Shown: positions 9,591 to 57,079, counted from the whole stretch's first letter. The stretch is 62,937 nucleotides of DNA, filler included, from Craspedostauros australis (GCA_030167865.1; 17 parts of 17 records of this genome joined end to end with filler, not necessarily neighbours in it); one strand, 5' to 3'. Numbers and translations: made by a program. The notes: generated by a model from the sequence alone, not told the origin.

Positions 9591-9767
9591 AACTGCAGCG
9601 ATTATTATAAATTTAAGACATGAGTCATGTCATGAGTCGAGATGGCCAGCGCAAGAGGATTTGAAAAAAAACGGCTTTGCGTAAAGTGTATTTGAGAGAG
9701 TCCGTTGAGTCGCCGCTTGCGCCCGGACGCAAGCCATGTAGGCCAGCACCAGGCCAAAATCATTAGG

Positions 9768-11022: not shown

Positions 11023-12303
11023 GGTGTTGGTGATATGCTGCTGATGCTCTGATCGTGATCTCTCGTGGTGCAATGGGATATGCTACCGCTCTGTTGTTCA
11101 GAGGTTGTGCGCTTGTGTTTTTGTGACGAGAAAGTATGGCGCAAGTGGCTCCGTGTGGCAGAGTATGGTATCGCATTCAAACCTGGTATGATACGAGTGG
11201 ACACACAGGGAGATCACTGCACAAATAGAGCAGCAGGCAGAGCGCGAATGTGGCGTTGGGTCTGATTCACTGCTGGCAGACATTGCTGGAAGGTATGAGG
11301 AAGATCCAGATTCAACATGTTCATGCACCAACCACAAGATTCTGGCATGGGTGTGTTAACTACAAACGAACCTGCGCAAACGTCTGGTCCACCATAAATC
11401 TGAACGATCTTGCGACCAATAACACGTCACACTGGGATGCTGGATCACTCAGACATCGGTACCAACTTCCGGATAGCGTCATCACATTTTCACACAGAAC
11501 TCAACTCGACCAAACTCCACTCAACACAGAGCTGACCAATCACAGAGAGTCACCAACGGTCGCGCTCTCCCCTGCTGGGTGTCCCTGTTGGTTGGCGAAG
11601 TCGTATGACTATTGGCCCCATGTGCCTTTCACTTCGATTTCGACTTTCTGTTTGTATGAGGAGTCGTATGCTATCCAGTCAATCACCGGACCTCGCAAAG
11701 AGACAACACAACAATGACATCTGTTCTCTCCTTCTCTCTCTCTCTAGAGAGGGAGACAGAGAGAGACAGAGGACAGTTGAGAAATGCACCTGTTGCCTCC
11801 TTGTTTTCGTTTGCCTTCGGTGCGTCCTATGCAACTCATCTGCCCCTGCTGGATTTCGCAAAGGGTGTCGCATCTTTTCAACAAGATCGAAAAAAGCGTG
11901 TGGCACATCTCAAATACGGACGACGGTGAACAACATCGCCGAAACAGGTCGCTGGGAAAGAAGACTGGAAGATCTATCAGGATCAGCACAAAAGTCTCGG
12001 CGCGATGAATAGGAATCAAATCTCTCCAGGGCGGAGACACCATGTGTTGGCACCTCGAGAATGGGCGTTCTCGTAGGTTGACTGCGAATATTATGCAATG
12101 ACGACCGCCCATCCCCCAATGCATGGTGTCTCTCGTAGCAATGCCTCTGCCGCCATTCGAGCAATGAGCGGGGTGCCACAACATCGAGACGATTTTCCCA
12201 TCTTCCAATCACGCCGCATGTACAAGTGGTGAGCTTTCGCCTTCGCAATGTAACTCGACCACTGCTCGCATTGCGCAATTGCTGCCCAAACGCAAAGCAT
12301 CTA

Positions 12304-13758
12304 CTACGCCGTCGCATTCGCCATCAATGCCCGAAACTGCGTCACGTTGCAGTCAGCACGCTGCGTCATGCAGAAGGAGTGCAGCACAACATGACACACG
12401 GATCCCGGCTGTCCCGCATCGCCTTGTGTCAACGCGTTGTTGAGGTGCAGCGTGTGACTGTGCTGAAAGAGCTTCTTGCCGAACATTCCCGCGAGGCCTA
12501 ACTCCGTGTTTGTCAAGCATCGTGGTTTGACTTCGCGATATTGGAAAGGATACAGATAGGAATGGGGGTAGATGTGGATGAGGACATCCTGCTCTGTCAT
12601 CGTCGTCGCTGTGCTGCTACCGTCTTTGCCAAAATCCACCACGACGCCGCGCCGCCGCACCTGCAATTGCTGCACCGTTCTGGTGATGAGCTGCGGTCCG
12701 TTGGATCCCCAAACCTTGGCGTTGTACTTGCGAAAGTAATCCTGCAAGCACAGCTCCACGAAGATGCTGTGCGGCCGATCGAATTTGAGCACGGCGTTGT
12801 TGACGATGGTCATCTTCTTGTCTTCGTATCCTGCCACGTTGTCGGGCAGTGCGTCATGCATAGATCGCAGCAGGACGATGTCGGTGTCGATGTAAATGCC
12901 GCCAAAGAGGTAGAGCGCGGCCAGTCGCGTGAAATCGGAGAGATTGACGGTCCAGAACTTGGAATGGATGTGAAAGGAATCGAATTTGTCCAGGAATGTC
13001 TGCGTCTGTTCTCGAACGTTGCTCAACGTCGTGGTGTTGGTCTTGTTGTTGCTGCTTCTGCTGGAGCTGTCGTGTATACCAACTTCGGACGCAAACTCTG
13101 ATGCAAAATCACGGTCCAGCAGATCCCGAATGAGATCCTTGGCTTGGAATGGAACGATATGAATATCGCACTGATGCTTATCGATGAGATCCTGGAACGG
13201 CGCCGTCGTCAAGATGGGCTTTCGGCTTTCATCGCGATCGATGGGAACATGGATGAGGACGGATACGTTGTGGACGCCGTAATGATAGAAGATGGATTCG
13301 AGGCTCTTGCGATTGTTGGCATTGAAGGTGTCATCGCCCGTGGTGAAGACGAGATGAAAGATGATGGGGTGTTGCGGTGTGCCGCTGGAAATGGTACGTC
13401 GTTTTGCATTGGCTTGGATGATGTCGTGGCATGTTTGGTACCACTGGGATACTCGCAATGCTTGGATTCGTTGCTGCAGGTCTTGCTGTTGTTGCTGTTG
13501 CTGTTGCTGTTCGTGCAATTGCTGTTGTTCAGAAGAAGAAGACGACTCTAATGCTGCGGTCGAAGCAACATCTGTCGCTGTGAAGGCTCTGAAGATGGGA
13601 GCAGTGATGTTGGTGGTGAACGCAATGGATGACAGCGACAAGAAGATAATGAGCGCAAGTGTGATGATGGATCGTACCGATGCCCTCCCTTGGCCTTTTG
13701 GCGCATCTTTCATCGTCTTTGTGCTTGTATCATCGAGGGCGGTCGTTCGTGCGTTCAT
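12304..13758 (-). CDS. GT32 alpha-1,4-glycosyltransferase (A4GALT/A4GNT-like), type II membrane protein
   Basis: N-terminal TM anchor and Gln-rich stem. Motifs SLESIF, NLSDFTRLAALYLFGGIYIDTD (DxD), NNAVL, WGSNGPQLITR and LHLNN. Confidence 0.92.
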   Translation of the reverse strand: MNARTTALDDTSTKTMKDAPKGQGRASVRSIITLALIIFLSLSSIAFTTNITAPIFRAFTATDVASTAALESSSSSEQQQLHEQQQQQQQQQDLQQRIQALRVSQWYQTCHDIIQANAKRRTISSGTPQHPIIFHLVFTTGDDTFNANNRKSLESIFYHYGVHNVSVLIHVPIDRDESRKPILTTAPFQDLIDKHQCDIHIVPFQAKDLIRDLLDRDFASEFASEVGIHDSSSRSSNNKTNTTTLSNVREQTQTFLDKFDSFHIHSKFWTVNLSDFTRLAALYLFGGIYIDTDIVLLRSMHDALPDNVAGYEDKKMTIVNNAVLKFDRPHSIFVELCLQDYFRKYNAKVWGSNGPQLITRTVQQLQVRRRGVVVDFGKDGSSTATTMTEQDVLIHIYPHSYLYPFQYREVKPRCLTNTELGLAGMFGKKLFQHSHTLHLNNALTQGDAGQPGSVCHVVLHSFCMTQRADCNVTQFRALMANATA

Positions 13759-14392
13759 TAATCGCTGGTGCTTATGGTGGTGATGTTGCGTTTATTGTTG
13801 TCGACGGTGGTGTCGGTGATGTGGGATGATGAAGGAAAGAGCACCCTGTTGCAGAAATGTGGCGATTGTTGCGGTCACAATGATTTTTGCGAGAATGGTA
13901 TCGTGAGTGAATGTAACACAGGACTGCCGTGAACAATTAGTCGAGCTATTCGAATGCTTGACGTGGCAGTTTTAGAACAGTTGACACAGAAGTCGCCAGA
14001 ACCTCTTGCGTGTGGGTTTGGCAACGAGAGGCGTTCTTGGGCGCAGTTGCGGTTCTGGTGGTGATGTGGCGCTGTTGCGCTGTTCTGTGCTGCGCCATGG
14101 CGACGTTGTCATCGTCGTTGCTGTTGGACCCTTCCCGAGAGCGCACAAGAGTGGCAGAGCACTCCTTTGAACCCTGGAACCGTGGTACATGGGGTGTGAG
14201 AGTCAATGTTGATACAGAATACCCCAGAGAGAGAGAGAGAGAGAGAGAGAGCCCATTGAAGCTGTTTGAAAGGAAGAGAGGAAGAAAGACAGAGCAAAGA
14301 TACCACGCATCGCATTGAACATAATATAGTATTATACTATAGCAGAGCAGAGCGAGCACGAGAACGCGGACAGAATCGCAAGAGCGAGAACC

Positions 14393-16141
14393 ATGACGAA
14401 CATGGAATCATGCTGCGTGCCTGAATGCGCTCAGAGCAGCAGCAGCATTATCAGCATTGATCGATGCGATGGAGATTCGGAGGAAGGCAACCAGCGACAG
14501 GAAGTCCCACTGCGAGCATGCACAAGAAGAATGACTCAACGATCAGGCATGACAATGATGACAATGATGATGATGACCATGATGGTTATGATGATGGTGG
14601 ATGGAACCTCTGCCTTCAGCTGCCACCATCACAGTCATCACGGCCATCAGCGCCATCACAGCCAAACGAATGCCAATTCCAACAGCCAGACGGCACTGCG
14701 GGACATCTCCGAATGGCGAGATCTGTGGTTCGACGACTCCAATTCCGACGCCAACCAACCCGCAACGCTGACCACGCCATCTGCCGCCAACGATCCGCTG
14801 CCCAAACGCGAGATCTGCATCCTGCCGTTCCCGTACCAGGAGGTGCTGCTGCAGGGCGAGACGAAGCAGCTGCGGCTCTACGAGGACCGCTTCCTCCAGC
14901 TCTTCCAGCACGCCGTCGATCGACACTGCGGCGTCGTGGCCATGGGATTGCTGGCCGACACGGGCATCGTCAAGACCGTCTCGTTGTGCGAGCTCGAGGC
15001 CTACAACCGCCTCGACGGCTTTGGCATCTTCTGCACGATAAGGGTCGTGGGACGGGCCGAGCTGTGCGAGCTCACGCAGCAGGAGCCCTACCTCACGGCC
15101 TACTGTCGCGAGATCACGGATACGATACCCATCAATCTCGAGCTGCCCGATCTCATGGCGACGTCCGTCGAGACGGCCATCGGCACCATCGCCAAGATGG
15201 AGCAGCAGCTGGAGCAGGCCAAGCACGTCATTGATGATAAAGGCGAGGAGGATGCTGACAATGAGACTGCCAATGAGGATGGGGAGTTGAATGGCGAAGT
15301 GCTTGGCAACAACCTCAACAGCACCATGGTCAATGATGCTCACAAAGATGGCGGCGAGAACAATGCCACCGCTGCCAACGGTCAGGGCGTCAGCAGAACC
15401 AGTGGCATGGATCGAAGGATCCAAATTGCCAAGCTGGTAAGTGCTCTATTGTCTGGTGCTGTGCTACGTGCTATATTTTCACAAACATATACTTGCACGA
15501 ACATATACTTGCACGAACGTGTTCTTGTATGGTCCCGCGTGCATGTGTGCCTGCGTGCGTGGTATTCACTCATTCATTTTCTCTTTTTTTCTGTCACAAT
15601 TCCGTGCACGCCATGCATTGTCCACATCTTTTGACACAATCGTCGTACAACTCGCAATGCACCAATGCAACGCAATGCACAAAAGGAGGACCAATTCTAT
15701 GAGGAACAGGAATCAGCAACTCTCAGCTCGGATGGCAGTGACAATGAAGATGATGACGACGACGAGGATGATGATGACGAGGATGACGACGACATGGACC
15801 GACGCGGTCGATTCCGCGAGGCCTACAACATCGCGCTGGCCACAGACACGCAAGGATACCAGCTCTCCAAAATTGCCACGGCGCTCTGTAGCAATGATAG
15901 CAGCTTGCGTCGAGAACGTACGCCGCAACAGCTAGCCGCGATCAGCTGGGCCGCCTTCTGCACGGAACCATTCCCGGAACAGGATGCCACGGTGCGCATA
16001 CGGGCCTTGGATTGCGACAACCTCTTTGATCGGCTCAAGATGGCGATGCATATGCTGGGCGAGAAGAAAACGGCCCTCAAGAATGCCATGAAGGAAGCCG
16101 GGTTGAAGATATCCAACGAGGACACGGAAGATGATCTGTGA
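14393..16141 (+). CDS. LON-N (substrate-binding) domain protein, probably plastid-targeted; intron 15437-15685
   Basis: ILPFPYQEVLLQGETKQLRLYEDRF...IRVVGR is a LON_substr_bdg signature. The GTAAGT donor and AAG acceptor join in phase 0 with ORF 15665..16141. The true start may be about 14531-14549, giving a Met-rich signal followed by TSAF. Confidence 0.85.
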
Positions 16142-25599: not shown

Positions 25600-28500
25600 T
25601 CATTCGCGGTCCGTCAAGACCGACACGTCTTCATCGTCGAGAGTCGCATCCATGCTGCTCTTGCTTCCATTGCCGCTACCCTGCCCATGCCTCATATCAC
25701 CAGACTGCGACGAGCTGCTTTGAATCGACGTTCGCTGCCCCGCGCTTCCCACCATCACGCTCTGCCCGGCTGTGCCAAAGTGGAACTGAAGACGGTTGTT
25801 GGTTGCTCGCAGATGTGGAGGAACGCTTGCTTGTCCTGACGACGGCTCATACATCTGGATGAGCTCGCCAATTTGGTCTTCATCGATGTATTGCGAATGG
25901 CTTTTGCGTAGATCACCGACCTTGGCTATAGCTCCCCATCGTTGGTAGTATGTGCATGCTTGAGTCATATACTTGGTGACATCGGCGTTCATCTTCATCA
26001 TGATCAGGTATTTCGCAAAACGTTCGCATGCAAGCCCTGCTTCATGGACGTGGCCAATTTCGCTTGACACGAAGATCGCATCCCGGAATGCCGCCTTGAC
26101 TGCATCGACGCTGCTTTTATCACCGTTCTTCGATGTAGCAGCGATGTATTCGGCCCGAATGATGAGATGCCTGTTCTTGTAGCATTCACCCCTTATGAGC
26201 CAGGCTGATCTGCTGTTTTTGTACGTGGTCTTGAGCAGTCGCTTGAACTTTGGACGCTTGGTGTCACGGTACAACGAGGCAGCCATCAGGCCGACGCAAA
26301 GGAACCGAGAGCTGTTGTAGTGGTATCCTGGATCGTCGGAAGAATTCTTGTCCAGGCGTTTGAATAGACTGTTCGTGACATCAGACCTCTGGAAGTAGGT
26401 TGCCAAAAGGATTCGTATCCAGTAGCCGACATGAAGGAAGAAAGCGTTGGCTTGCGTCTTCACGATACCCTCACCAAAGCGGGCTATCTCATTCCAATCT
26501 ACTCCCTCTTCTCCAAGCAAGATCGCTGATACCTTGGCATGCTCCTTGAACCAATCAATACTTGATGACACTTTGAACAGTGCCATCTGCTCAAACATTG
26601 CTTCGTATGAATATTGTATCTCCCCCAAGGGATGGCCCTCCCACGCAGCGACTAGATTGCTGGCTAGCCAAGCGAAGAAGCCAGTCTCAAAGTCGCCCTG
26701 CTGCATACATACAGAGAAGCCTCGATGAATTTTCTCAAGGATCGAAGCTGCTGGTTCATGCCACCCAGATATGAAGAGGCCGTCGATCATGTCAATCCAC
26801 GCCTTGATGTACGGATCATTATATTGGCGGATAATAGCATTCGCAATGCCAGCAAGGCGTACTGCCATATCTTGATTCCCTTGAGCAGACTGCACCATGC
26901 CAAAGCTGACAAAACCCAAAGCAGCCTCTGGGCAGAGACCATGCTCGAGCGACATCCTCACAGTCTTCATCGACGACATTAGCCATTCCAATGCCTCTGC
27001 TCCGGTGTACGCACGAATCATGATCTGGAACATGAACTTGTTTGAGAGGATCTTCTTCTTGTCATTCAGTACCGGAAGCGATAGGATCTGCTCATCCGTG
27101 TGGCGTCTGAGGTATGATGTCAGCCATAACATATCCCGAATCACGTGCAGCACATATCCGCGCTTGGGGTACCTTCCAAGCAAGCGGACAGTCTCTCTGT
27201 TCATTTTCATGCAGAGATCTTGCCTGTCCTGCTTGGCGTATGCTACTGCCATACAGGAATATACCGACAGCTTCTGTTCGGTTGTGTCTGCCCTCTCCAA
27301 TACCTCTCGACCCAGATCGTATCCCAGCTGGTAGTGGCCCAGTGTGAGCTCCGCATCAGCTCGGAGCTGATGTAGACGAAGCGAAAGATCATAATGGTTC
27401 TCCCACGGGGCGCGGAGCTTGCGGAATGCATTGTAGGCCAGCTGCAAGTACATGGCTGCTGGTGCCAGCGCTGCCATCTTCAATGCCTGCTCTCCGACTT
27501 CCAAGTTGAGCTGAAGGGAGAATGGATGATCCTTGGTTGGTATGCAGTTGAGATGGTCGGCGGCAACGAAGAGCAGGCTCGCATCGATGGTTGGAAGTGA
27601 CTGGCCACCGCCTTCGTTGCCGCCGCTGCTGACTGTAGATGGAAGTGGAGATGTTGTTGTTGCTGTCGTTGCAAGCGGAAGTTGGTTCTGTTCACAGTAC
27701 ATCCTCCAGATGTACAGCCCGATCCTGTGTTTCAATTTGCTTCTCATTTCGCCGAATGGGACGAGTCCCAATGCAGCCTGCTGGATGCGATCATGAGCGA
27801 AACGGAATGTCTTGCTCCCGACTGGGTTGGAGAGGAGACCTTCCAGCACCGCTTCTTCCAGATGATCCGACAGCAGCATTGAATCTACTCCAGATGTTGA
27901 GAGCGTCTCTGCTCCTCCGCCACCATCGTGTTTGACGGTGTTGGTACCTGCAAATACGAACCCATCCATCGGAGGCTTCTGAATGCTCTCTTCTCTCAGC
28001 ACAAACTCCAACAGATCAACATCAAAGCTGAAGCGGATATACGACGCGATGATCAGGGCGGTACGAAGTTCGGCGGGCTGGTTGTTGAGTTTCATCGCCA
28101 TCAGCTGGACCACGTTGCCTGCAGATGCGAACGCTTGTTTGCGGCGCTGTTGATCTCCATATTGGGACATGCTCAGATCGTTGCTGCCAAGGGATGCATC
28201 ATCAGGGATGTGCCACTCCCATTGGAATGAGATGCGGCTGTACACGATGGCGTTGCACCGCTCAAGCTCCTCCAGGAGCTGCAGCATGAAGAAGACGTTG
28301 CCTTCCGTCTTGGTGTAGATCTTGGATGTCAACGGTTGCAGCTCCTCCACTTCGCGGTCGAGAAGCTGCGACAGCCACAGTCCGACATCATCCTGCGTCA
28401 TGTTGGCGAGATGGATGTCGGTCCATATCGCGCTTGCGTCTTGTGCTGGTGGTGGTTTGGGCCATAATTGGGGATGCTTGGGAGACGCATGGTCTTCTGC

Positions 28501-29385
28501 GTGATGTTGAGAGCTATGCAGCTTGTCGAACATGCTGGCGAGTGGAGATGTCGGGGCTAACTCCAAGGGACAATCGGAGTGCGGGTTTGCTTCCTGACGG
28601 ATGGCACCGATCAAGAGGAAGTTGCTGAGCTGTTTGTCTTGCAGCAACGTGGCGAGAAGATCCAAGGCCACTTGGGAGCTCCACTGCATGTCATCAAGGA
28701 ACATGACGACCGGTCGCTTCCTCGTCGCGATGGCCTTGATGAATGATCCGAACATGTACTGCAGCTTGTTCCATGCCTTGTCGCTGGAGGTCACCATTTG
28801 TTCCACACTGTCGCTCTCGATGGTGCAGTTTGTGCGTTGGTGTCCACCTTGGATTTGATCTCTTGTCGATGATACTGCAGATGATGGTGGCGCCGGCGAT
28901 GCTCCTCCACCGGCCTTGCTTCCACTGTTTCCCTTGCTTCCCTTGCTTCCCTTGTTTGCCTTGTCCCTCTTCTTCTCACGCGGCCCATCATGCAAAGACT
29001 CCGTCTCCAGCAAGGATGCGATGGATGGCACGATGGTTGCCATCATCTGCACTTCGCCACCGATAGTGTCGCGAATGATGTCGGTCATGCGTTTGCGTTC
29101 ATCTTTGGGTTCGCTGATGACCTGTTGACAAAAGTCGCTCAAGGTTTGAACGATGGCCGAGAATGGGTCCTTGGATCCTGTCGTTTCATCGTTCTTTCCT
29201 TGGATGAAGTATGCGCGCTGTGTTGGCTGCGAATGATTGGCGTTGGTGTTGGTGTTGGTGTTCGTGTCGACTGGTTGATCGTCAGGATTGTTGCCCTGCT
29301 CACCAGCAGCACCAAGGGACGCTGCAAGCTGCTTGACGAGTCTGGATTTGCCAGTTCCGCTGAGTCCCCAAAGGAACGCGGCAGG
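25600..29385 (-). CDS. STAND-type AAA_16 (COG3899-like) ATPase with a long TPR-like helical C-terminus, 5'-truncated by the contig end
   Basis: The frame is open to the contig edge and includes Walker A GLSGTGKS (29367-29344). Also Walker B VMFLDDMQW, KTEGNVFF, FRFAHDRIQQAA and terminal YQRWGAIAKV. Confidence 0.9.
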   Translation of the reverse strand, partial: PAAFLWGLSGTGKSRLVKQLAASLGAAGEQGNNPDDQPVDTNTNTNTNANHSQPTQRAYFIQGKNDETTGSKDPFSAIVQTLSDFCQQVISEPKDERKRMTDIIRDTIGGEVQMMATIVPSIASLLETESLHDGPREKKRDKANKGSKGSKGNSGSKAGGGASPAPPSSAVSSTRDQIQGGHQRTNCTIESDSVEQMVTSSDKAWNKLQYMFGSFIKAIATRKRPVVMFLDDMQWSSQVALDLLATLLQDKQLSNFLLIGAIRQEANPHSDCPLELAPTSPLASMFDKLHSSQHHAEDHASPKHPQLWPKPPPAQDASAIWTDIHLANMTQDDVGLWLSQLLDREVEELQPLTSKIYTKTEGNVFFMLQLLEELERCNAIVYSRISFQWEWHIPDDASLGSNDLSMSQYGDQQRRKQAFASAGNVVQLMAMKLNNQPAELRTALIIASYIRFSFDVDLLEFVLREESIQKPPMDGFVFAGTNTVKHDGGGGAETLSTSGVDSMLLSDHLEEAVLEGLLSNPVGSKTFRFAHDRIQQAALGLVPFGEMRSKLKHRIGLYIWRMYCEQNQLPLATTATTTSPLPSTVSSGGNEGGGQSLPTIDASLLFVAADHLNCIPTKDHPFSLQLNLEVGEQALKMAALAPAAMYLQLAYNAFRKLRAPWENHYDLSLRLHQLRADAELTLGHYQLGYDLGREVLERADTTEQKLSVYSCMAVAYAKQDRQDLCMKMNRETVRLLGRYPKRGYVLHVIRDMLWLTSYLRRHTDEQILSLPVLNDKKKILSNKFMFQIMIRAYTGAEALEWLMSSMKTVRMSLEHGLCPEAALGFVSFGMVQSAQGNQDMAVRLAGIANAIIRQYNDPYIKAWIDMIDGLFISGWHEPAASILEKIHRGFSVCMQQGDFETGFFAWLASNLVAAWEGHPLGEIQYSYEAMFEQMALFKVSSSIDWFKEHAKVSAILLGEEGVDWNEIARFGEGIVKTQANAFFLHVGYWIRILLATYFQRSDVTNSLFKRLDKNSSDDPGYHYNSSRFLCVGLMAASLYRDTKRPKFKRLLKTTYKNSRSAWLIRGECYKNRHLIIRAEYIAATSKNGDKSSVDAVKAAFRDAIFVSSEIGHVHEAGLACERFAKYLIMMKMNADVTKYMTQACTYYQRWGAIAKVGDLRKSHSQYIDEDQIGELIQMYEPSSGQASVPPHLRATNNRLQFHFGTAGQSVMVGSAGQRTSIQSSSSQSGDMRHGQGSGNGSKSSMDATLDDEDVSVLTDRE

Positions 29386-29485: not shown

Positions 29486-31186
29486 TTCGCTGACGCGAAT
29501 TCTTACCACGTCCTCTCAGATGACGACGACGAGGACGATGACGACACCAACAACAACACGAGTGCGAAGAAGAACTCACCAGGTCTCGCGAGCGAGACGG
29601 CGACCACACCAGTGGACGAAGGGACTGCGTCCGAAGAAGAGATTGACGCGATTCCTGTCGACGACGACACAGTGACCGACATTGAAGATGTCGCCCCACC
29701 GAGTGTCCCGCCAAGCATCCTCCGCACTCCGCCAACGTCACGCAAGCGTTCGCACGAAGCGAACGATGACCCGAAAGTTAGTCGCACCACGACTGCTGAT
29801 CCCCCAAGACGACCAAGCAAGCGCGACACCGCTCGCAGCGAACGACAACAGCGATACATCGAGCGAAGCAAGCATCAAGCAAAAACGAATGCGAAGTCGC
29901 GTGCATCGCTGCCATCCAACGTGAAAGGAAAGAGCGAATTGCGCAACCTTGCAAACTACAACAAGCCAGGAAAGAAAGAGAAGCATGAAGACAAGCGGTT
30001 CACTACCAACCTATCCGTCTTCAATAGGGGAAGCGACACCGATGACGACAAGAGCAACACAGACCACGATCAGGACAACAGCGAGGAGACCAACGACGAT
30101 GACGAAAACAATGGCGACACCACCGACGAGAATGAGGAGAACAACGAAGCTACAGACGACGAAGACAGCGATTCTCCTCCATCGGACATCACCAACGCAG
30201 TCACAGATGCTCTATTCGGTAACAACGCAATCAGCACCGACGACTTCGAGATAGAGATCTGCGCAACCACCGAAGATGAGACAGGAGAGACATCGACGCA
30301 CATCGAGCCATCAACCTTCGACCAAGCATTCAACCATCCGAATGCAACACACCAGAAGGGCTACAGAGCTGCCATCGCAAAGGAGTTCGGTTCGATGGAT
30401 GCTCGATCCGTCTACAGCAAGATCAAGCGCTCATCGATTCCAAGGGACCGCAGATGCTGCAAGTGCAAATGGGTGTTTAAATTAAAGCGCAATGGAACCT
30501 ATCAAGCGCGTCTGGTGGCGTGTGGCTACTCACAGATTGCAGGAGTGGACTACCAAGAGCACCACTCGCCTGTCATCCACGACGTCACGTACTGTGTGAT
30601 GATGGTGATCATGATGCTACAGAAGATGGATTGTGCACTCGTGGACGTGGTCACGGCATTCTTGTACGGCGACCTCGAAGAAGAGGTGTACATGAATTGT
30701 CCAAGCGGAATGGACAGCACACCTGATGAGGCGCTGCTGCTACACAAGCCAATCTACGGGCTGGTCCAGAGCGCACGCCANNNNNNNNNNNNNNNNNNNN
30801 NNNNNNNNNNNNNNNNNNNNNNNNNNNNNNNNNNNNNNNNNNNNNNNCTCTTCCATCGCAAGACGAAGAACGAAACAGTCATCGTGGCGATCTACGTTGA
30901 CGACTGCTTCTGCTGCGGACATCAGAAGGCACTCGACCAATTCATGATCGACATCCAGAAGAGCAAGTTCAAGGTCACCATCGAGAAGGGTTTGGGTGAC
31001 TACCTCAGCTGCAACATCCAGCTCAACGCAGACAAGACGAGAGCTGTCCTACGCCAGCCACATCTGATCCGAAACCTGATCACCGAGTTTGGTGCAGAGG
31101 TAGAGAAGATGCAGCGCTACGCGACGCCAGGGACGCCAAGCCAGAGCATCGTTCGCCCATCCGAAGAGAACGGATTGCAGAAGGTG
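29486..31186 (+). mobile_element. Copia (CoDi-type) reverse transcriptase fragment
   Basis: EPSTFDQAFNHP, CKWVFKLK, ARLVACGYSQ, DVVTAFLYGDLEEEVYM, IYGLVQSAR and YVDD (RVT_2). The frame is open across the contig. Confidence 0.96.
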
Positions 31187-32714: not shown

Positions 32715-33998
32715 NNNNNNNNNNNNNNNNNNNNNNNNNNNNNNNNNNNNNNNNNNNNTTAATTAATTAANNNNNNNNNNNNNNNNNNNNNNNNNNNNNN
32801 NNNNNNNNNNNNNNCAGTGATGTGTGTCTTCATGCTGGTCACGAACACAACATCGCTGCCCCTTGTGACATGCAATAGTGTATTGGATGTTTGCATTACC
32901 CTTCACAGTCATCACCATTCAATCCACACTTGTCATTCGCCATTCGTCTCAGGACAGCCTTCGCCTCATCATGTACCTCACATTTTGATGCTCATAATGT
33001 CACATCGGGAGGTGCGGTAATTTAGTGTTTCACAACACTTGACTCCAAATACTCCTGGGAGGTGCGGCAATCACGTGTTTCATAACACCCGATTCCTGAC
33101 AAGTGGTTAATTGTTGTACTTGCTTGGTGTGGAACAGAACGGACATGTCTCACGCAAGAACAACTCGTTTGTTGCCATGAGGATGATGGACGTCGTTGCT
33201 TCGTTGATGTTGTGTATGCAGGCATGTTTCCGCACAAGACAGACACATGTGCGTTGTTGTGGCAAACAGTCACGTCGCCATGAAGTCCAGTCGACAACGT
33301 GCGACGTTGGTGGGACCAGCGTGCACACCAAGCTGATCAACATCCGACGTCAGTATGCAATCAGCAGACAAATATCATACATCAGTATGATGTATGTATG
33401 ACATGTTACATCCGTTATTGACATTTTTGCAAGGAGTAAGGCTAATCACACCAATTTAGACACCCCCTGTAGAGATAACTATAATATTAATGGGAACAAA
33501 AGCGCCACTACGTGATAGGGGAGGCCTCCTTTGGTCATTCTATGTGTCTAGTTGCAAACTAATCATACTCAGTGACTGCAGAGGGGGGTGGCAAGTTGCG
33601 CCTTCGAAAAGTGGAAAACCCTGCCACCGCAATGTCATACTTCACCTTCACTTCAGTCAAACATCGGTCAAACATTGATCGGACGTCAGATGACGTAGGT
33701 TGGTTGTTGAGATGACATGATCCGACGGAGGTACGACTTTGGTCGGATGTTGCAACGACATCGTCTTCCCCACGCAGTGTGTTGGAAAGGCGCGGCACAC
33801 TGACATTCCACACGTCCAAGAAACACGAAGCAGCAGACAGCCATTCTCCAACAACGCGTGCATGAACTTGACACTGGCTCGATGGTAACGGACAGANNNN
33901 NNNNNNNNNNNNNNNNNNNNNNNNNNNNNNNNNNNNNNNNTTAATTAATTAANNNNNNNNNNNNNNNNNNNNNNNNNNNNNNNNNNNNNNNNNNNNAC

Positions 33999-34586
33999 AT
34001 CAACTGCAAAAACAACGATGGTGACACTCCCCTTCATCGGGCATGCTGGAACGGCCACCTGGAGTGTGTCAAGTGCCTCATCGAATCATGTGAGGCGAAC
34101 ATCAACTGCAAAGACAACAATGGTTCCACTCCCCTTCATGAGGCATGCCGCAACGGCCACCTGGAGTGTGTCAAGTACCTCATCGAATCATGTGGGGCGG
34201 ACATCAACTGCAAAACCAACAATGGTTCCACTCCCCTTCATCGGGCATGCTACAACCGCCTCCTGGAGTGTGTCAAGTACCTCATCGAATCAGGTAGGGC
34301 TAACATCAACTGTCAAAACAACAAAGGTGAAACTCCCCTTCATTGGGCATGCACGCGTGGCCACCTGGAGTGTATGGAGTCCCTCATCAGAGGACTTTCA
34401 CCTTCAGCTCACCCACAACTACAACAACTGCAGCAACACTTACAACAAAACGAACAAGCAAATGAACAACCACAAGAACAGTTGAGACAGCAGTTGAAGC
34501 GAAAGACCCAAGAGAATGAACACAAGCACAGCAGCAACAAGAGGACCAACGTCAGCATTGGAGAAGACCGACTCAAATCCTTCTAA
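33999..34586 (+). CDS. Ankyrin-repeat protein, 5'-truncated; four 34-aa (102-bp) repeats followed by a Gln-rich coil
   Basis: This frame is not in the ORF track. It reads INCKNNDGDTPLHRACWNGHLECVKCLIESCEAN / INCKDNNGSTPLHEACRNGHLECVKYLIESCGAD / INCKTNNGSTPLHRACYNRLLECVKYLIESGRAN / INCQNNKGETPLHWACTRGHLECMESL. The same frame reopens after TAA 34584-34586. Confidence 0.93.
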   Translation: MNCKNNDGDTPLHRACWNGHLECVKCLIESCEANINCKDNNGSTPLHEACRNGHLECVKYLIESCGADINCKTNNGSTPLHRACYNRLLECVKYLIESGRANINCQNNKGETPLHWACTRGHLECMESLIRGLSPSAHPQLQQLQQHLQQNEQANEQPQEQLRQQLKRKTQENEHKHSSNKRTNVSIGEDRLKSF

Positions 34587-35758
34587 ACTGGGAACAGGGC
34601 AGACACCATCTCCTTGTGTGGACAGGGCGACGAACAGCAACCAATCAAGACAAATGCCGAAGTTCTCATGATCGCTTTCCCATCCATCGAGACACTGATC
34701 GACGAAGGAATCCAACATCAGCATGCGAACGATGGCAACCAAGACGGCGTGCCCCCATCCAAACAACCATCCCTCTCCCCAACCTTCAACCAAAACAAGT
34801 CCGATACTTCCTCCAATACGACTATGTTGGATGCTGTTGTTCGATTTCGGCGTTGTTCGTTTTCTTGCTTCGATGATGTATGCCAACACGTGTTACATGA
34901 CTGTTCAATCATTAACCGCTATTTACCTGTTACTCCAATTTTGACACTGTTGGGGAAGACACCTACATTCCCGGTCTACCAGTGGTTTCGTTGCATCCCG
35001 ACGAAGACCAGACCAGGCAAGGAAACCCAACCGAGACCACACGATCGCTGTGCCAAGTCAGCGATAAGATCACAGCAGCAACAAACAGCAACAAAGCAAA
35101 GAGAGCAAACAAACATTATAAAGATCAATTGTAACTATCTGATTTACCACCCATAGTAGTACAATCACACAGCAACATCGTCTGGAACTGTCCTTCGGCT
35201 CGAAGCCGGGTAGAGACAGGCGAGAGCGCTGTTGTTTCAACAACAATTGCTGCAACGAGTAAGGAACACCCGGTAAAATGGGTCGAATTAGTCCATCGTT
35301 GAGAAAGCTGGCCCAGCCAATCAAACCTTGTTGAATTGGCAATGACAAATCTTCCTGCGAAAAGAATGCTCTCGACTCCAATCTTCGTTCTCAGGAACTC
35401 TTCGTGGGTCGTCGCTGACAGTTTCATTTATGGCAGAACCGAGGATAAACTCCGAAAGTGAACCTGAAGTTGTGTGTCGTGATTTGATCCCGAACAGTCA
35501 TGTAACAACGACGCCCATGATTTAAATAGCCTTCATTAGATTTCAATAGCCGCCTCCAGACTTTACTAGCTGTTGTTAGAGAAATTTAGATATTGGATCT
35601 GTGTGTCATCGGTATTGATGGGACTCGATTCTGCAGGCAAGTGACATTTGTGGCTCGCTGTATTTCTCCGGAATACAGCCAACAGACGATCGTGCGAAGT
35701 TCTTCGAAGGAAGACTTGTTCTTCGTCAATGGCAGGATGTCCATTGTGACATTCTCGT

Positions 35759-35837
35759 GTCTCGGTGACAAAATCGTTGTTAGGTGTCGAATTAGTCGCA
35801 CTAGTCGAATTTCCGTTTCCGTTGCTTTTTGCGGGTG
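35759..35837 (+). repeat. Dispersed repeat (about 80 bp), also at 55351-55430
   Basis: GGTGACAAAATCGTT..GGTGTCGAATTAGTCG.ACTAGTCGA.TTTCCGTTTCC.TTGCTTTTTGC is shared between two contigs. Confidence 0.8.
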
Positions 35838-36684
35838 GATTTGTTGAAGAGATCTCGGGAACTGGGTGAACAAATCAAGGAAAAAAACTGGCGCGCAGCG
35901 TTCCTCCGCACACGCACTTTTCCACAAGCGAGTGTCGTTCCTGGGAGAACGACAACAACACAGCCCCATCGCACTATTCCTCTCTGTGTGTCTCACTGCA
36001 CGTGCACTTGTGTTCTCATCTGCGACGATCACTTCCTTGGCAACACACCATCCACACAGCATCTGGCAACAAAATACAATCAACGAACAGATTGTACTCC
36101 GAAGCACAGCATCACCACACAGCAATCGACAAGCGTTGCCAGGTGTTCACAAACCTCTCTCCGGCCGAAGCCAGATACAAACCAAAGGTACGTTCCGCTC
36201 ATCAATCAATTGCAGACGCAGATTTGCAACATGAATGAATGTCTGTATGGCCAAGAGTGAATGATGGGAAGATTCGTTCGCAACTCTCGTCCTACCCGAC
36301 GCAGCGTGATGCCTCAAGTTGGAGCACACATCGAGAGCATCGGCATCACCGGCAGCATCTGGGGAGGATGCTCCCTCCGGATCAGCTGCCATCGTCATGG
36401 GAGGTGTGATGCGTAATTATGCCACGCGTCCCCCACACTTGTCGTTCCGATCACATGCTTGCCTTTGCATGTTGGTTGCATACGGTGTCATCGCCGCCGA
36501 CTCCGCTCTAATCTGTTCTGCCCAACTCAACTCAACCCCACACGTTTCGTACCCCACCGGTACGAGTACTTCTGTTCCCGCACTTCGCAATGCGCTGCGC
36601 TACACTACTCCATCCGTGTCAATCACGTACATGAATCGCAGTACACAATCCAAGCAACCGACAAGCAGCAACCACCAAGCAACC

Positions 36685-37655
36685 ATGATCCACACCAAGG
36701 CAGCCTTGGTCGCCTTTCTCGCTCTCGCCAACACGGCGACGGTCGACGCCGTGCTCCGCGGCAACAGGACTCCCGTGGATCCAACCGAGGAACTCCACAT
36801 GATGATGGCGAAGACCCGCATTCTCAAGCAGGCCATCGGCGACACGAAGACCAACAAGAACAACCCCACTGAGAACCCGACTGATCCAGAAACAACTGCG
36901 CCAACCGCATTGCCTACGGGGCCGCCGACTACCTCGCCAACCCAGATGCCCTCCATGACGCCTGTCGCTCCGCCAACCGCGTCGCCAACGTCTCAACCAA
37001 CTCTCCTGCCAACATCCAAGCCATCAGCTGCCCCAATCGCAATCACCTTCGACTCCACCATCGAAGTCATTTGCAGGCCGGATAGTATGACCGCCCTCTC
37101 ACAGCAAGAGGTAAGCGCCAAGACCATCATCTGCAACTCTGCCAAGGCATCCTGCCGTGTGGCAGTGGCCGCCGTCAAGGAATCCGAGCAGCTGCAGAAC
37201 TTCTTCGCGTGCGCAGGAGACCTGGGAGAAGCGGCGGCACGCAAGCTCTTCAACAAATACGCATCCAGCGACATCCTTGCTGGCCAATTGGCGTTGATCG
37301 CTGCCACCAACCCGCTCCTCGTCACTGAACGTCCGGATGCAATGAAGACAGCATGCGCGGCCATGGCGGCGATGCAATCGCCTGCCGTCGCAGACCCATG
37401 CTGCCAAGGATCTTCGGGATGCACCTCAGTCACCGGTTCCGCCTCCAACTCCCCTCCATTCATGACCATCGCAATCACGGCATGCACTGGCGACAGCGCC
37501 TGCAAGGATATGGGCCCCAATCCCCTCATTCTCGATTCCTCCTGCACTGGCACGAGTGCATGCGAGTTGATGAACGAAAATGAAATCAACCCGTCCATCA
37601 CGGGAGTCACCTTCGTCGGTGAGATGGCATGCACCACCCCTCAATCTTGCGAGGG
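36685..37655 (+). CDS. Paralog of the secreted Cys-rich/mucin protein at 3836, 3'-truncated by the contig end
   Basis: MIHTKAALVAFLALANTATVDAVLRGNRTPVDPTEELHMMMAKTRILK...PCCQGSSGCTSVTGSASNSPPF aligns with 3836-4770, with mostly synonymous changes in the core. Confidence 0.9.
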
Positions 37656-44435: not shown

Positions 44436-45283
44436 TGCTATTCCGAGTTAATAACGATTGGTGTCCATTCACGTTGGTGTCTCCAGCTTTTTCCTTCCTC
44501 CTCGTTCGTTTGGAACACGTTAAACAACGTTAGCTGCTGCGGAATCGATTGACATTTTGTGCTTGTCGGCATCACACACATCATCACCACATGCGCACGC
44601 ACACATCGTCGCCACGCAGACACAAAAAAAACCGTCACATTTTTTGCATCTTTCCAAAGGTGCCTCCGCCGATGCAATGCTCATTGCATCTGTTTTGCTG
44701 CGGTTGTAGTATGAGTAGTGAGAGTACTAGTGACATTGGCGGTTGTTGTTTTCGCTGCTGCATCCAACACCTCCATCGGCATCACCTCCTCCACCCGCTT
44801 TCATTCAGCGTTCTACGGTGCGATTCATCAATCAANNNNNNNNNNNNNNNNNNNNNNNNNNNNNNNNNNNNNNNNNNNNTTAATTAATTAANNNNNNNNN
44901 NNNNNNNNNNNNNNNNNNNNNNNNNNNNNNNNNNNCAGTCATGGATGCTGTACAGCACACATTCTCAGTACTCTTGAAATGCTTAGGTCGATCAAGTCGA
45001 AAATTCAGAATGAGAAGTCCTCCACAAAATCTGAACACGAAACAACAACAATCGAAGGGAAGAAAAGATCCAACATGTGAAGTATCACTCACATCGACAC
45101 TCGTGCTGATGTCCACAATCTCATCGGAGCAGAAGCAAGAACACCCACTCCACGCAGCTGCTTTGATCCATACGTGATTGTATGGTGCACACACAGGAAG
45201 TCTCCAATTTCATCATCTCAGAATCGCAGACAAAACACACAACACACAGAGACACAAACAGAGAGCAGGACGCGCCAACAACC

Positions 45284-46012
45284 ATGCCGTCAGGAAACAC
45301 CTCCCGAAAGAATAACTCGGCCAATGCGAAAGTATCCATGCACCAGATATTCGACGAGGGTGCATTCCGCTACGTCTACAAGGGCAACTACACGAGTGGC
45401 CCACGCGCTGGAGAAGAGTGCGTTGCCAAGAAGTTCAAGACCGGCAGTGTCTATGAGGCGCACTACTTTGACACGGATATCAAGACCGTCGACAAGGCCA
45501 TCAACATCATCGAGAAATGGAATCAAAAGAGTTTCATTGACAAGATGGTCATGGTCAACACTCCAGGAGTTTGGGAGTTGACAGACGGTGAGGAAGCTGG
45601 CGCAAAGCTGCTTGTGGAGCCGTTCATCGAGAACTACGAGAAATTCAACTCCAACAGCGGCTGGAACGAGACCGGCATCGCCTGGGGACGCGCAATGCAG
45701 GCGCTGTCCCATTTCTCCTACCACATCACCGGTGGTCAGTGCCTGCTCTGCGATCTGCAGGGCGGATCCTACTCCAACGGCATCGTCCTCACGGATCCCG
45801 TCATCATCTCCAGAACGCAGGGCGCCTACGGTCCCACCGATCTTGGTCGCACGGGCATCAGCTCCTTCTTCTCCAGCCACCGTTGCAACGAATACTGCAG
45901 GCGCGCGTGGTCGATGCCCACGGATCGAACCCGCTATCACGAACAGAACCAGGGCACGAGCATGATCCATGTGCCCACGCAGTACAGTCGATTTCCCATG
46001 AGCCGGCGTTGA
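45284..46012 (+). CDS. Stand-alone alpha-kinase (eEF2K/MHCK family)
   Basis: FDEGAFRYVYKG, CVAKKFK, LVEPFIENYEKFNSNSGW, QALSHFSYH, LCDLQG, LTDPVI, GPTDLG and FF..H.CN..C. The start could alternatively be 45182. Confidence 0.95.
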   Translation: MPSGNTSRKNNSANAKVSMHQIFDEGAFRYVYKGNYTSGPRAGEECVAKKFKTGSVYEAHYFDTDIKTVDKAINIIEKWNQKSFIDKMVMVNTPGVWELTDGEEAGAKLLVEPFIENYEKFNSNSGWNETGIAWGRAMQALSHFSYHITGGQCLLCDLQGGSYSNGIVLTDPVIISRTQGAYGPTDLGRTGISSFFSSHRCNEYCRRAWSMPTDRTRYHEQNQGTSMIHVPTQYSRFPMSRR

Positions 46013-48582: not shown

Positions 48583-49005
48583 CTCGTCGAATATCTGGTG
48601 CATGGATACTTTCGCATTGGCCGAGTTATTCTTTCGGGAGGTGTTTCCTGACGGCATGGTTGTTGGCGCGTCCTGCTCTCTGTTTGTGTCTCTGTGTGTT
48701 GTGTGTTTTGTCTGCGATTCTGAGATGATGAAATTGGAGACTTCCTGTGTGTGCACCATACAATCACGTATGGATCAAAGCAGCTGCGTGGAGTGGGTGT
48801 TCTTGCTTCTGCTCCGATGAGATTGTGGACATCAGCACGAGTGTCGATGTGAGTGATACTTCACATGTTGGATCTTTTCTTCCCTTCGATTGTTGTTGTT
48901 TCGTGTTCAGATTTTGTGGAGGACTTCTCATTCTGAATTTTCGACTTGATCGACCTAAGCATTTCAAGAGTACTGAGAATGTGTGCTGTACAGCATCCAT
49001 GACTG
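48583..49005 (-). repeat. Apparently identical copy of 44936-45358 (alpha-kinase 5' end and upstream region)
   Basis: The reverse complement matches and the ORF translations are identical. Both segments sit at contig ends. Confidence 0.9.
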
Positions 49006-53734: not shown

Positions 53735-55572
53735 TCACCAGCAGCGATAACCAACAGCGACAGCGCCAATGACAATGACAGTAAGAGTGAACGCATGGGA
53801 GAATAGGGGGCAATGGTATTGCGGTATCATGGGCGAGTGCAAAGGAGAGGAGTTGAACCGGAAGCTGGATGAAAGGGAAGGGACTTCCACATGCGTTCAC
53901 AAGTGTAATAGGAATGCTTGATATCTTCACTGCCAGTGCGCGTACCAGTACTCCACTCTACTTTTTAGAAAGCGACGAGTTTCCGCCAACTTCTCCACGT
54001 CCTGCGTTCACTCTATTCAGCGCCCGCTGTGCGGTAGCGGCGCCAATGACGCTGTCATCCACGGCCAAGGTCAGGACAGTGCTTTATTGCGTCAGTGGTG
54101 CCATGTGCAGGCACGATCATTGCCGCCCTCGGTGGTATCACCAATCTCAAAGGGAACTGGCGGAGCAGAAACGGAAACATGATATTATTGATCATGACAA
54201 TCGAGGCCAGAGCGCCAACAGACAAGAGAAGAGGAGAGAAGAGTACGCGTGAAGCATCATTGTCTCCCTTCGGCCTGCTTTGATTCGCTCTGCTTCTGTC
54301 CTGCTGTGTTCGATACCATGTGTCGAGGAGTCACTCTGCTGTTCGCAATTCGCTCACGCGGGTGAGTATAGCATTAAATGATGCGTATGGTGGAAGAGGA
54401 GACGAGTAGATGTGTGAGTGTGAGCGCATGTGTGCGTGTGCCAGATCGTCACCCCTCGGGAGTCACTTGTCTGCAGAGAGAGAGAGAGAGAGAGGAAGCG
54501 CCTCGGGTTCCTTGAGGTTGCAGCGACAAGAGGATCGAGAATGGCCATGGGCGACAGCGAACCCGTTTCCGACAAACCATAATCTCGTGGAGCGGATCAA
54601 TTGTTGTGCCACCACTCTCCTGCTGGTTGCGATGGTACTCTCCATAATTTCGTTCCGTGGCAACTCTTGTGGTATTGTACCCTGGGAGTCATCGTAAAAG
54701 TTACAAAATAAAATAGTTTGTATTTAGGTCACGAATTATCAACGTTTCGTCACAGTCGAGTAAATCGACAACGGCAATCCATTTGGTGGTCGGATCGCGA
54801 CTGTGGCAAGTCAGGTTTGTTGTGTTCGTTACTGTTGCTACTATCGGTGTTGGCTTATTCTAGTAGCGCACTGACTTGGTTCTGTTTGTTTGTGGGTGTT
54901 GTTGTTGATGTGTGTGTGTCTTGGTTGGTGCTCATTTGTTGCCCATTGTGCGCTTTTCACTGCCTGGTGTGTTGTTGAGCGAGCATCCTCTTGCAACATG
55001 AACTTGGTTGGGGCTCATGCATGCACTGTTGATGCAAGTCCATCCTCAGAGACAGCAGCTGAATGAACTCCTGTTGTGACAGATCTTGGAACACCATCCA
55101 TTCGTTGGTGTACAGAATCGTTTCGGCTCAGCACATTGTCATTCTCGCGACGATGGACAAACCCAGCAGTGGGGGCTTGTGGCATGTCCGAGATTGAGAA
55201 GGTGGTGTTGTCAATGTTGGTTGCTGCTGCGCGCTGCTGCTCCACCATGCNNNNNNNNNNNNNNNNNNNNNNNNNNNNNNNNNNNNNNNNNNNNTTAATT
55301 AATTAANNNNNNNNNNNNNNNNNNNNNNNNNNNNNNNNNNNNNNNNNNNNGTCTGGGTGACAAAATCGTTCTTGGGTGTCGAATTAGTCGTACTAGTCGA
55401 GTTTCCGTTTCCTTTGCTTTTTGCTGGGTGTCCCAGAACGCAATGCACCTCGCGCCCACTTTTCTGCTAGAGACAGGCAAGCTACGATCAGGAATCTTTT
55501 CCGCAACTCCAGCGCTAATCAATACCATCTCTCATAAATATTAGCGAACAACATTGATTCACTCACTCAGTC

Positions 55573-55875
55573 CTATTGACAGAGGGACTCGATACACTCC
55601 AGGTGGCCGTTGCGGCATGCGAAATGAAGGGGAGTGGAACCATAGCTGTTTTGGCAGTTGATGTTCGCCTCACATGATTTGATGAGGTACTTGACACACT
55701 CCAGGTGGCCGTTGTTGCATGCCCAATGAAGGGGAATCCAACCACTCCATTGTGTAACCTTGTTGATGCCAACTCCTTCATTCTGCACCTCGTTCTGCTT
55801 CTTCCATTCCTTCAACACCGACAAGTCACCTGCCCTGGCAGCATCAATGAGTTGTTGGTCTGTGACATTCGGCAT
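55573..55875 (-). CDS. Ankyrin-repeat protein (N-cap plus 2 repeats), same family as 33999; probably truncated by an insertion at 55581
   Basis: LIDAARAGDL, PLHWACNNGHLECVKYLIKSCEANINCQNSYGSTPLHFACRNGHLECIESL. Scaffold codons are nearly identical to the 33999 repeats. Confidence 0.85.
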   Translation of the reverse strand: MPNVTDQQLIDAARAGDLSVLKEWKKQNEVQNEGVGINKVTQWSGWIPLHWACNNGHLECVKYLIKSCEANINCQNSYGSTPLHFACRNGHLECIESLCQ

Positions 55876-56304
55876 TTTGAGGGGATGGTCGATGGCGTTG
55901 GATTGGCTGTTGAGGAAGCGCGTAGTCTGAGCTATCTATGGCCGAGATATCGATCATGTGTCTTCAATAGGTTGTATTAGTATTTGGATGCGTACCATGC
56001 ACTGTGTGGTATCTCGATGTCTGTTGCTGATGTGCTCGAGTATGGGAGTGAATGGTGTGTGTTGTCGTGGGTGTTTCGAATGCGATCCCGAGGTCCCGTC
56101 ACTCAAACGAGTCGTACGAGTGAAGAGCGATTCGCGACTCCACTTTGTCGCGTGTGTGTGTATCCTTGACTCAGAAATGTTCGCCATCTACGTTCGCTCA
56201 GATTCTCCCTCGAGAAGACAGGAACACACATTGCACAAACTTCGACCCAAACACAATACGTACTCTTCTCGAGAGTAAACATCATACGACTCCCTTGCTC
56301 GACG

Positions 56305-57079
56305 ATGATCAGATCGCATTGCCTCGTCGCATGCTATGCGTTCGCATGCTGTCTTTCAACAAGCATTGCGTTCGTTCCTTCATTGCCTTCATGGCCTTCA
56401 TCAGCTTCGATAGTAGGCCACGAGGCTCATGGGGATGCTGGTGCTTGCGCCGCTCGGAGACTTCCTTCGTTGCGCCTGGCAGCCAAGCAAGAGATCACCT
56501 TTGATGCGCTGGACGGAAAGAATGTCCTGGTGGTCGGTGGATCGGGACGTGTGGGCGGAAGCGTCGCGGCGCAGCTGCTGAAGCGAGGGTCGGCGGCCAC
56601 CGTGGGTGGCACCAGCGTCGATTCCTTCCTCGCGGCGCAGCAACGCTGGCGCACCAGCTTCCCCAACCTGCTGGTGGACGATGTGTAATTCCAGGCTCTG
56701 GACCGCGAGGAGGAGCAATCCGTCGCATCGGTGCTGCAGCGGGGCAGCTACGATATGTGTGTCCACACGGCCGGTCCCTTCCAAGGCAAGGTCAAGACAC
56801 CCAACGGTGTTATCGCGGCCTGCGTGTCCAACAGCGTTGCTTACATCGACGTCTGCGATGACTATTGCACAGGCTCTGCCGCCAAGGCGAAGTACAATGC
56901 CAAGGCCATCGAATCCAACGTCCCTTGCATCATCAGCACCGGATGCTGGCGAGGCATATCCAGTCTCATGGCCAAGTAGCTCGTGCGGCAAGTCCTGCAG
57001 CAAACCAAGAACCTCAAGCCGGCCAATCTCAATGTCGATTTCGGGTTCTTTACAGCGGGATCGGGCGGTGCCGGAGCAA
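56305..57079 (+). pseudogene. Plastid saccharopine-dehydrogenase-like oxidoreductase (At1g50450/HBFD-like) with two premature stops, 3'-truncated by the contig end
   Basis: A single frame reads signal + IAFVP, VLVVGGSGRVG, *56686-56688, VHTAGPFQ, YIDVCDD, GCWRGISSLMAK, *56977-56979 and FFTAGSGGAG. Confidence 0.88.

Follow-up and report, generated by a model that had tools for sequence, protein, structure and literature searches.

Arrays of protein repeats that are near-identical in DNA while differing in their ligand-facing residues are rare: according to the available part of PMC4986451 (Dyrka et al. 2014), they account for 0.4–1.2% of the ANK/TPR/WD repeats found in plants, animals, and dikarya. 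Where studied, they mark fast-evolving recognition proteins. For fungal NOD-like receptors (NLRs), the same part of that source describes repeats that evolve in concert, are polymorphic in number, and have positively selected sites on their concave face. Here we analyze a 62,937-base stretch of DNA from the diatom Craspedostauros australis (GCA_030167865.1), referred to in its entirety as the window, in which an earlier note had proposed DARPin-like ankyrin repeats forming a diversifying and possibly immune recognition system. The repeat is carried by an array of 102-bp ankyrin units at 33997–34388 (locus A) and by a complete gene at 55573–55875 (locus B).

We read locus A, with a probability of about 0.6, as the 3′ part of a contig-cut gene, and place loci A and B in a family of ankyrin proteins of a raphid-type diatom that is large and lineage-specific, its members being small, consensus-like binders diversified by turnover of their units. 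The evidence includes the shared codons of the units, their rearrangement in register across public sequence data, and related diatom transcripts.

Near-identical units in a wider family

Tandem Repeats Finder places at locus A a repeat of period 102 (3.8 copies, 85% matches, score 544; 33997–34388), self-BLAST recovers it at 85.2% identity over 290 nt (E 5.6e-92), and Pfam assigns four stretches to Ank (PF00023, clan Ank; E 6.7e-45, 149 bits against a cut-off of 21.1), which bears out the 102-bp repeats that the earlier note had located at 33999..34385. Read on the plus strand from 33999, the frame runs for 196 codons: four 34-residue units, A1 (33999..34100), A2 (34101..34202, the nearest to the family consensus), A3 (34203..34304), and A4 (34305..34406), then a Q/E-rich C-terminal tail with its TAA stop (34407..34589; stop at 34587–34589). 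A4 is C-terminal cap-like, with a second helix (ECMESL...) like that of the last unit of locus B. The array opens at the first base of its contig (33997), directly after a linker ending at 33996, so the 5′ part of the locus A gene is missing.

Locus B is a complete minus-strand open reading frame (ORF) of 100 amino acids (aa). From the ATG at 55875 it encodes an N-terminal capping repeat (N-cap; residues 1–37, MPNVT..., 55765..55875), unit B1 (residues 38–71, 55663..55764), and a C-terminal cap-like unit B2 (residues 72–100, 55573..55662) that ends at TAG (55573–55575). Pfam finds only Ank families in it (E 1.1e-20, two stretches), and it matches locus A at 89.6% identity over 154 nt spanning a unit boundary. 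Within the window, only these two loci bear the 102-bp unit.

Units A1–A3 are 87–89% identical in nucleotides, with protein identities of 76% (A1–A2), 76% (A2–A3), and 74% (A1–A3), corresponding to 8, 8, and 9 non-synonymous codons of 34. The codon differences counted earlier were exact—8 non-synonymous and no synonymous between A1 and A2, 8 non-synonymous and 1 synonymous between A2 and A3—as were the residues listed after PLH (R, E, R, W, W, F) and after AC (W, R, Y, T, N, R). Ten positions are residue-invariant across the six units of the window (G8, P11, L12, H13, A15, C16, L21, E22, C23, and L27), and at each of the ten the codon is the same throughout. Nine of these ten codons each account for 12–52% of synonymous usage in six Pfam-supported window ORFs, and TGC for 81%; codon usage alone would give this result with a joint P of ~10^-19.5, and codon bias is rejected as the reason for the identical scaffold codons. 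Only two synonymous variants appear in the six-unit codon table: A4 has TGT at its position 3, and A3 has GCT at its position 33. These units are young copies, sharing recent ancestry or being homogenized, and the near codon-identity claimed for them holds.

The family extends far beyond two copies, as 904 of the 30,610 contigs of one public sequencing run (X1) align at 80% identity or more, nearly all on 33997 to ~34850 (array, tail, and ~260 bp past the stop). By identity, 82 of them fall at 99% or above, 238 at 95–99%, 346 at 90–95%, and 238 below 90%; 197 of the 904 fit two places on the stretch. At all eight array joints with known inserted letters (nine letter rows, worked by hand), offset plus insert is an exact multiple of 102 (102, 102, 204, 204, 204, 306, 306, and 408). 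The number and order of the units must therefore differ, always in register, in other members or alleles of the family, which fits the recombination between units that had been proposed. The unaligned letters at these joints lie mostly over positions 5–9, 13–18, or the loop at 29–34 (by hand) and code for other residues; positions 17–18 read D-G and Y-S in two of the contigs. Some of these letters differ synonymously in helix 2, and codon identity therefore does not extend to the wider family. Runs X2 and X3, from another organism in the same study, yielded 0 aligned contigs, which is no proof of absence.

Close relatives in 5.8 billion proteins were, among the matches listed, P0041 and P0121 only. 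Both come from transcriptome MMETSP1442, whose organism is printed as 'Craspedostau...' (the diatom Craspedostauros). P0041, a partial sequence of 138 aa, shares 72% identity with A and 49% with B, and P0121, of 58 aa, shares 74% with B. Both begin with the locus B N-cap (M-P-N-x-T ... A-G-D-L-S-V-L), which in P0041 is followed by three units on the same scaffold with all four cysteines kept. On expression, these sequences document related genes transcribed in a diatom.

In the protein search with A at near lengths, P0041 (72%) was the only close sequence among 120 matches listed; with B, 12 candidates included P0041 and P0121 as the only close ones; and at longer lengths the matches were all long ankyrins of a generic kind, none above 51% identity. 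A metagenome scan with the family alignment found 548 ankyrin relatives, the best 80 of which (78 distinct loci) were all generic ankyrins at or below 49% identity and added no DNA of the family, and the ESM Atlas queried with locus B gave only generic small-ankyrin clusters. A profile built from the N-terminal alignment and run against 1.84 billion representatives grew to 104 positions and was uninformative on the family (150 matches listed, 964–6,572 aa, with 9–90 matched stretches each). Supplements aside, literature searches on diatom ankyrins and passages of diatom genome papers gave no account of such a family, and the word 'ankyrin' is absent from the main text of the Seminavis robusta genome paper.

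Across these sequences an N-cap is followed by n units and a C-terminal unit, to which a tail is sometimes added; inspection by eye shows no evident signal peptide. An AlphaFold2 (AF2) model of A, computed with no alignment input, has a mean predicted local distance difference test score (pLDDT) of 71.9 and two helices per unit (e.g., residues 11–17 and 21–31), with those of A4 at 113–120 and 123–132. In Foldseek against the PDB, the best 50 matches listed are all designed or engineered ankyrins, mostly DARPins, at root-mean-square deviations (rmsd) of 1.3–2.6 Å. The model is 54% identical to 4ANK (1n0r; template-modeling score 0.90 by target length, rmsd 1.7 Å), 54% identical to ANK-N5C (4qfv), and 40–47% identical to DARPins. 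The helix-turn-helix plus beta-turn solenoid fold appears both in the model and in its matches. 'DARPin-like', the term used in the earlier note, is a fair description of the sequence.

Variation, selection, and competing readings

To place the variation, unit numbering was offset by +4 from that of designed repeats, with the family's extra residue (Cys31) set after helix 2, on the basis of HMMER alignments to DARPin chains. The set of randomized positions taken for DARPins agrees with the modules in those alignments. The highest-entropy positions in the nine units compared are 17, 7, 5, 9, 14, 6, and 18. These seven include all five positions randomized in ANK-N5C (designed positions 2, 3, 5, 10, and 13, equal to unit positions 6, 7, 9, 14, and 17; P 7.5e-5) and five of the seven DARPin positions (P 0.0014). 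At the DNA level, the five N5C-equivalent codons hold 8 of the 18 segregating sites of A1–A3 (P 0.0024), and the a priori DARPin set holds 6 of the 18 (P 0.148).

Most of the variation lies at beta-turn and helix-1 positions. Whereas variation in DARPins is confined to designed positions 2, 3, 5, 13, 14, and 33, the units compared here vary at positions 5, 14, and 32 as well, and A1 and A3 also vary in their scaffold. The proposed placement on the beta-turn/helix-1 face, including the residue after PLH, stands in this respect, although the same positions vary in ankyrins generally. What is unusual is the combination of this generic variable-position pattern with near-identical DNA.

The scaffold had been described as frozen, but in copy A it is not fully so. 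Codons are invariant at the ten positions given above, and four cysteines (positions 3, 16, 23, and 31) are conserved per 34-residue unit in A1–A3, B1, and the P0041 units, Cys31 of A3 excepted; a Prok-RING_1 match to the Cys-bearing units is weak and below cut-off (E 0.00043). Against this, R-L stands in A3 for the G-H motif that every other unit keeps, and A3 also has G for Cys31 and R for G32, and A1 has lost Tyr26 (Y26C, at 34075). Aligned X1 depth carries the other letter in 8882.7 of 8924.5 at 34075, 2395.6 of 2454.9 at 34257, and 438.1 of 489.7 at 34296, the latter two in A3. The changes at these three framework positions are private to copy A, which, bearing such scaffold-damaging changes, may be decaying.

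If the reading of A and B as members of a family diversified by unit turnover is correct, arrays would grow, shrink, and swap units through unequal crossing-over or gene conversion, whether inside one paralogue or from one to another. Differences in residues would persist mainly at five to seven beta-turn and helix-1 positions forming the concave binding face, and the proteins would act as small cytosolic binders with specificity set by positions 5–9, 14, and 17–18. The tail of A may mediate self-association. That such a family constitutes a diversifying recognition repertoire is possible and a worthwhile hypothesis, which the data neither prove nor exclude.

A number of points weigh against this reading. 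Only nine units were compared, six from the window with DNA sequence and three from P0041. Measured against the majority consensus of A1–A3, a pooled star-tree test counts 1.5 synonymous and 18.5 non-synonymous changes, and neutral simulation gives P(synonymous ≤ 2) of 0.16, 0.10, and 0.05 at kappa 1, 2, and 4. A one-sided binomial test reaches P < 0.05 in just 1 of 15 unit pairs (A1–B1, 0.045), the pairs being non-independent. The non-synonymous excess is therefore suggestive but not significant, and the positive selection at variable sites that had been claimed is not established. The private scaffold changes contribute to this excess, and they point to relaxed constraint at least as well as to adaptation. 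The five ANK-N5C positions were themselves picked for highest entropy among natural ankyrin repeats, as given in the available part of PMC4308713, so the protein-level pattern here is that of any ankyrin protein. The 5′ end of locus A lies beyond the contig edge, which leaves room for a further upstream domain in this copy. Whether run X1 is DNA or RNA is a tool's guess only. Its summed depths are not copy numbers, and fragmentation of the de Bruijn graph inflates contig counts; the summed word depths of 1,873–14,591 over 33997–34850, against 36–39 over 34851–35216, were accordingly left unused as copy numbers.

Two alternatives turn on how the differences between units arose. A positively selected multi-locus repertoire, diversified at paratope positions for recognition of non-self or pathogens in the manner of fungal NLR or brown-alga ROCO/NB-ARC repeats, would explain why Nei–Gojobori pN/pS (non-synonymous to synonymous differences per site) is above 1 for 14 of the 15 unit pairs, reaching 3.1–5.4 among A1–A3, and why the 18 segregating sites of A1–A3 fall 9/7/2 at codon positions 1/2/3, a third-position deficit (P 0.033). 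Differences are clustered within codons at P < 0.05 in 3 of 9 comparisons; codons 9, 14, and 17 differ at two to three nucleotides amid identical scaffold codons; and the concentration in N5C-equivalent codons (8/18, P 0.0024), the large family, and the in-register shuffling all agree with it, as does the same combination of features in fungal NLR ankyrin repeats in the available part of PMC4986451. We nonetheless consider it unlikely: the selection tests (1/15 pairs; pooled P 0.05–0.16) and the clustering in the DARPin set (6/18, P 0.148) fall short, the variable positions are the high-entropy ones of any ankyrin repeat, and some non-synonymous changes strike the scaffold. No NOD, Roc, TIR, or death-type domain was found in B or P0041, unit protein identity (74–76%) lies below the 85% fungal criterion, and a pathogen link is without evidence; the suggestion of immune function thus has no direct support. 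The opposite, neutral account—a newly amplified, redundant family in which many copies, A included, drift under relaxed constraint and surface positions vary because an ankyrin fold tolerates change only there—overlaps with our reading of a family diversified by unit turnover, and as an account in its own right it is possible though doubtful. It accommodates the private changes at 34075, 34257, and 34296, a pN/pS of about 1 in pairs with A4 (0.83–1.50), the lack of significance of the non-synonymous excess, and the generic entropy pattern. It sits less easily with frames that stay intact for 196 codons at locus A and for 100 at locus B, with a scaffold including four Cys per unit kept between the window and the Craspedostauros transcripts at 66–74% overall identity, and with the depletion of third-position changes (P 0.033). 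Were the family a drifting multicopy gene, the finding would be an ordinary one, chiefly flagging a repeat that breaks short-read assemblies.

Other explanations concern the copies themselves. Amplification of the gene with its 3′ flank inside a mobile or satellite-like repeat, family size then being element copy number, would account for similarity to hundreds of X1 contigs that runs ~260 bp past the stop and ends sharply at ~34817–34850, and for an assembler breaking the contig inside the array; it is nevertheless very unlikely, in view of the absence of transposase, reverse transcriptase, or integrase from the contigs of A and B (the only reverse transcriptase of the window lies at 29486–30778), the different 3′ flank of locus B, and related transcripts that resemble ordinary mRNAs starting at the N-cap. 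Highly improbable is an assembly artefact, in which array A would be a collapsed or chimeric join of paralogue reads with unreal unit order and private variants. The array does border a contig edge, its identity to the longest X1 contigs shown there is only ~84%, and the assembly is redundant elsewhere (57180–58251 is 98.4–100% identical to 58352–59434, and 44936–45358 is the exact reverse complement of 48583–49005, 423 nt at the end of one contig and the start of another). The array is in frame throughout, however, and summed X1 depth of 42–59 supports the window's letter at the three private positions, in a run that is possibly the assembly's own source data. The most far-reaching proposal holds that tens to hundreds of free-standing mini-ankyrin genes of the form cap-(34-aa unit)n-cap, constantly re-assorted in register and with five to seven paratope positions kept diverse by selection, form a natural DARPin library for intracellular recognition without a NOD or Roc tether; we regard it as speculative and distinctly unlikely. 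Its targets would be viruses, parasites, bacterial effectors, or mating and self cues.

Flanks, contigs, and neighboring frames

The window consists of 17 short contigs separated by 16 artificial linkers of N44-TTAATTAATTAA-N44 (1020–59534). The linker at 33897..33996 (N44 + TTAATTAATTAA + N44) marks the contig boundary upstream of which the 5′ part of the locus A gene was lost. The contig of A spans 33997–37655 and that of B 55351–57079, the latter preceded by a linker at 55251–55350; with the two loci on different contigs, their adjacency in the window carries no linkage information. Run X1 contains 52% of sampled words of 33997–35400 and is possibly the source data of the window's assembly; its cover is absent over much of the contig of A past ~35340, which is uninformative either way.

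The tail of A carries two predicted helices (residues 138–154 and 156–177; block pLDDT 57–81) and has no Pfam family match. The 3′ flank past the stop (34590..34850, plus strand) is common to many X1 family contigs. Self-BLAST finds no second copy of this flank or of the tail in the window, and shows the 3′ flank of locus B to be different; ORFs in the flank are without Pfam match. An intron reading through the TAA at 34587 was considered and rejected: no plausible GT..AG pair was seen by eye, the downstream sequence offers no protein-like frame and no Pfam match, and no such joint occurs in X1. The other ORFs on the contigs of A and B have no Pfam match. One of them, at 56305–57079 (plus strand, downstream of the promoter side of locus B), opens with a hydrophobic presequence and holds a GxGxxG-type motif (VVGGSGRVGG), features seen by eye that suggest a targeted NAD(P)-binding protein.

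Several frames elsewhere in the window are noted in their own right. A minus-strand open frame of 1,261 residues (25603–29385) with an N-terminal AAA_16 ATPase domain (E 1.6e-16) runs off its contig end; it could be a STAND-type ATPase and is not linked to the ankyrin loci. The reverse transcriptase is a Copia-type fragment (RVT_2, E 2.9e-22) alone on a short contig (29486–30778, plus strand). A plus-strand ORF of 1,013 residues at 3728–6766, with PT-repeat and DUF7640 matches, encloses a 156-bp tandem repeat (2.4 copies, 93% matches; 5339–5775) and looks low-complexity, possibly a secreted or wall protein.

Comparison with known systems

To our knowledge, no innate-immune receptor repertoire has been described for diatoms. 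A very large family of free-standing ankyrin binders, if real, would be a concrete candidate for a diatom recognition repertoire, and the comparisons below bear on what kind of system it would resemble.

The earlier note likened the repeats to sensors of the NLR or ROCO type. Where the N-terminus is visible (B and P0041), no NOD, Roc, or death-type domain is present, and the likeness remains an analogy. No NACHT or NB-ARC precedes the repeats, as locus B and P0041 begin with Met and then the ankyrin cap; no other domain was found in either. Roc and COR gave no match in the C-terminal tail of A or in B, nor do the downstream ORFs on the contig of A match Pfam.

The best long matches are the eukaryotic ANK-Roc-COR proteins P0132, P0133, and P0163, at 50–51% identity. 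They share similar 34-residue units with internally conserved stretches, a Cys loop (C-x3-C before K), and a VKYLIE helix 2, but they differ in length (1,100–2,000 aa), in carrying a Roc GTPase and COR, in Cys spacing, and in an identity far below that of the Craspedostauros proteins (72–74%). The likeness is between units, not architecture. As a separate observation, the very long ANK-Roc(-COR) proteins P0132, P0133, P0163, and P0008, which match best outside the family, may form a candidate receptor family of their own.

Brown-alga LRR-ROCO and NB-ARC-TPR candidate receptors are likewise stramenopile repeat families with proposed unit shuffling (available parts of PMC3341825 and PMC11378527). 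As described there, they are built of LRR or TPR repeats, each exon encodes a single repeat, and a Roc-COR or NB-ARC domain is attached; none of these features is seen in the diatom loci. The diatom dAnk proteins, in the available part of PMC11151724, are also ankyrin-repeat proteins, with a proposed role in binding other proteins by their cytosolic tails; they are few and tied to silica morphogenesis, unlike a large family of near-identical units, a distinction drawn from that description only.

The fungal NLR repeats resemble the diatom units in the behavior of their DNA. In the available part of PMC4986451 they too include ankyrin units of 33–34 aa that are near-identical in DNA, change in repeat number, and exchange between repeats and paralogues. 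There, however, the repeats lie C-terminal to NACHT or NB-ARC and effector domains, whereas the diatom N-terminus is an ankyrin cap and one gene spans just 100 aa. The fungal criterion for highly internally conserved (HIC) repeats of more than 85% protein identity across at least 100 aa contrasts with 74–76% between the diatom units, and positive selection in the fungal case was shown with many alleles, against a pooled P of 0.05–0.16 here. With two defining features lacking (>85% identity and, where the N-terminus is visible, a NOD domain), the diatom family may work alike without being a member of that class.

Designed ankyrins are comparable in layout. DARPins, 4ANK (1n0r), and ANK-N5C (4qfv/4o60) likewise consist of an N-cap, identical internal modules, and a C-cap, an arrangement seen in locus B and P0041. 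The diatom unit departs from them in its length of 34 aa, Cys31 being an additional residue that follows helix 2, and in its four conserved Cys: one is this inserted residue, and the other three stand in place of Ala, Ala, and Ile in the designs, whose libraries exclude Cys; position 5 (Asp1 in DARPins) also varies in the diatom units, and copy A adds a helical tail. If the family is what we propose, it would be a natural counterpart of engineered binder libraries, built on an unusual scaffold with four Cys per unit.

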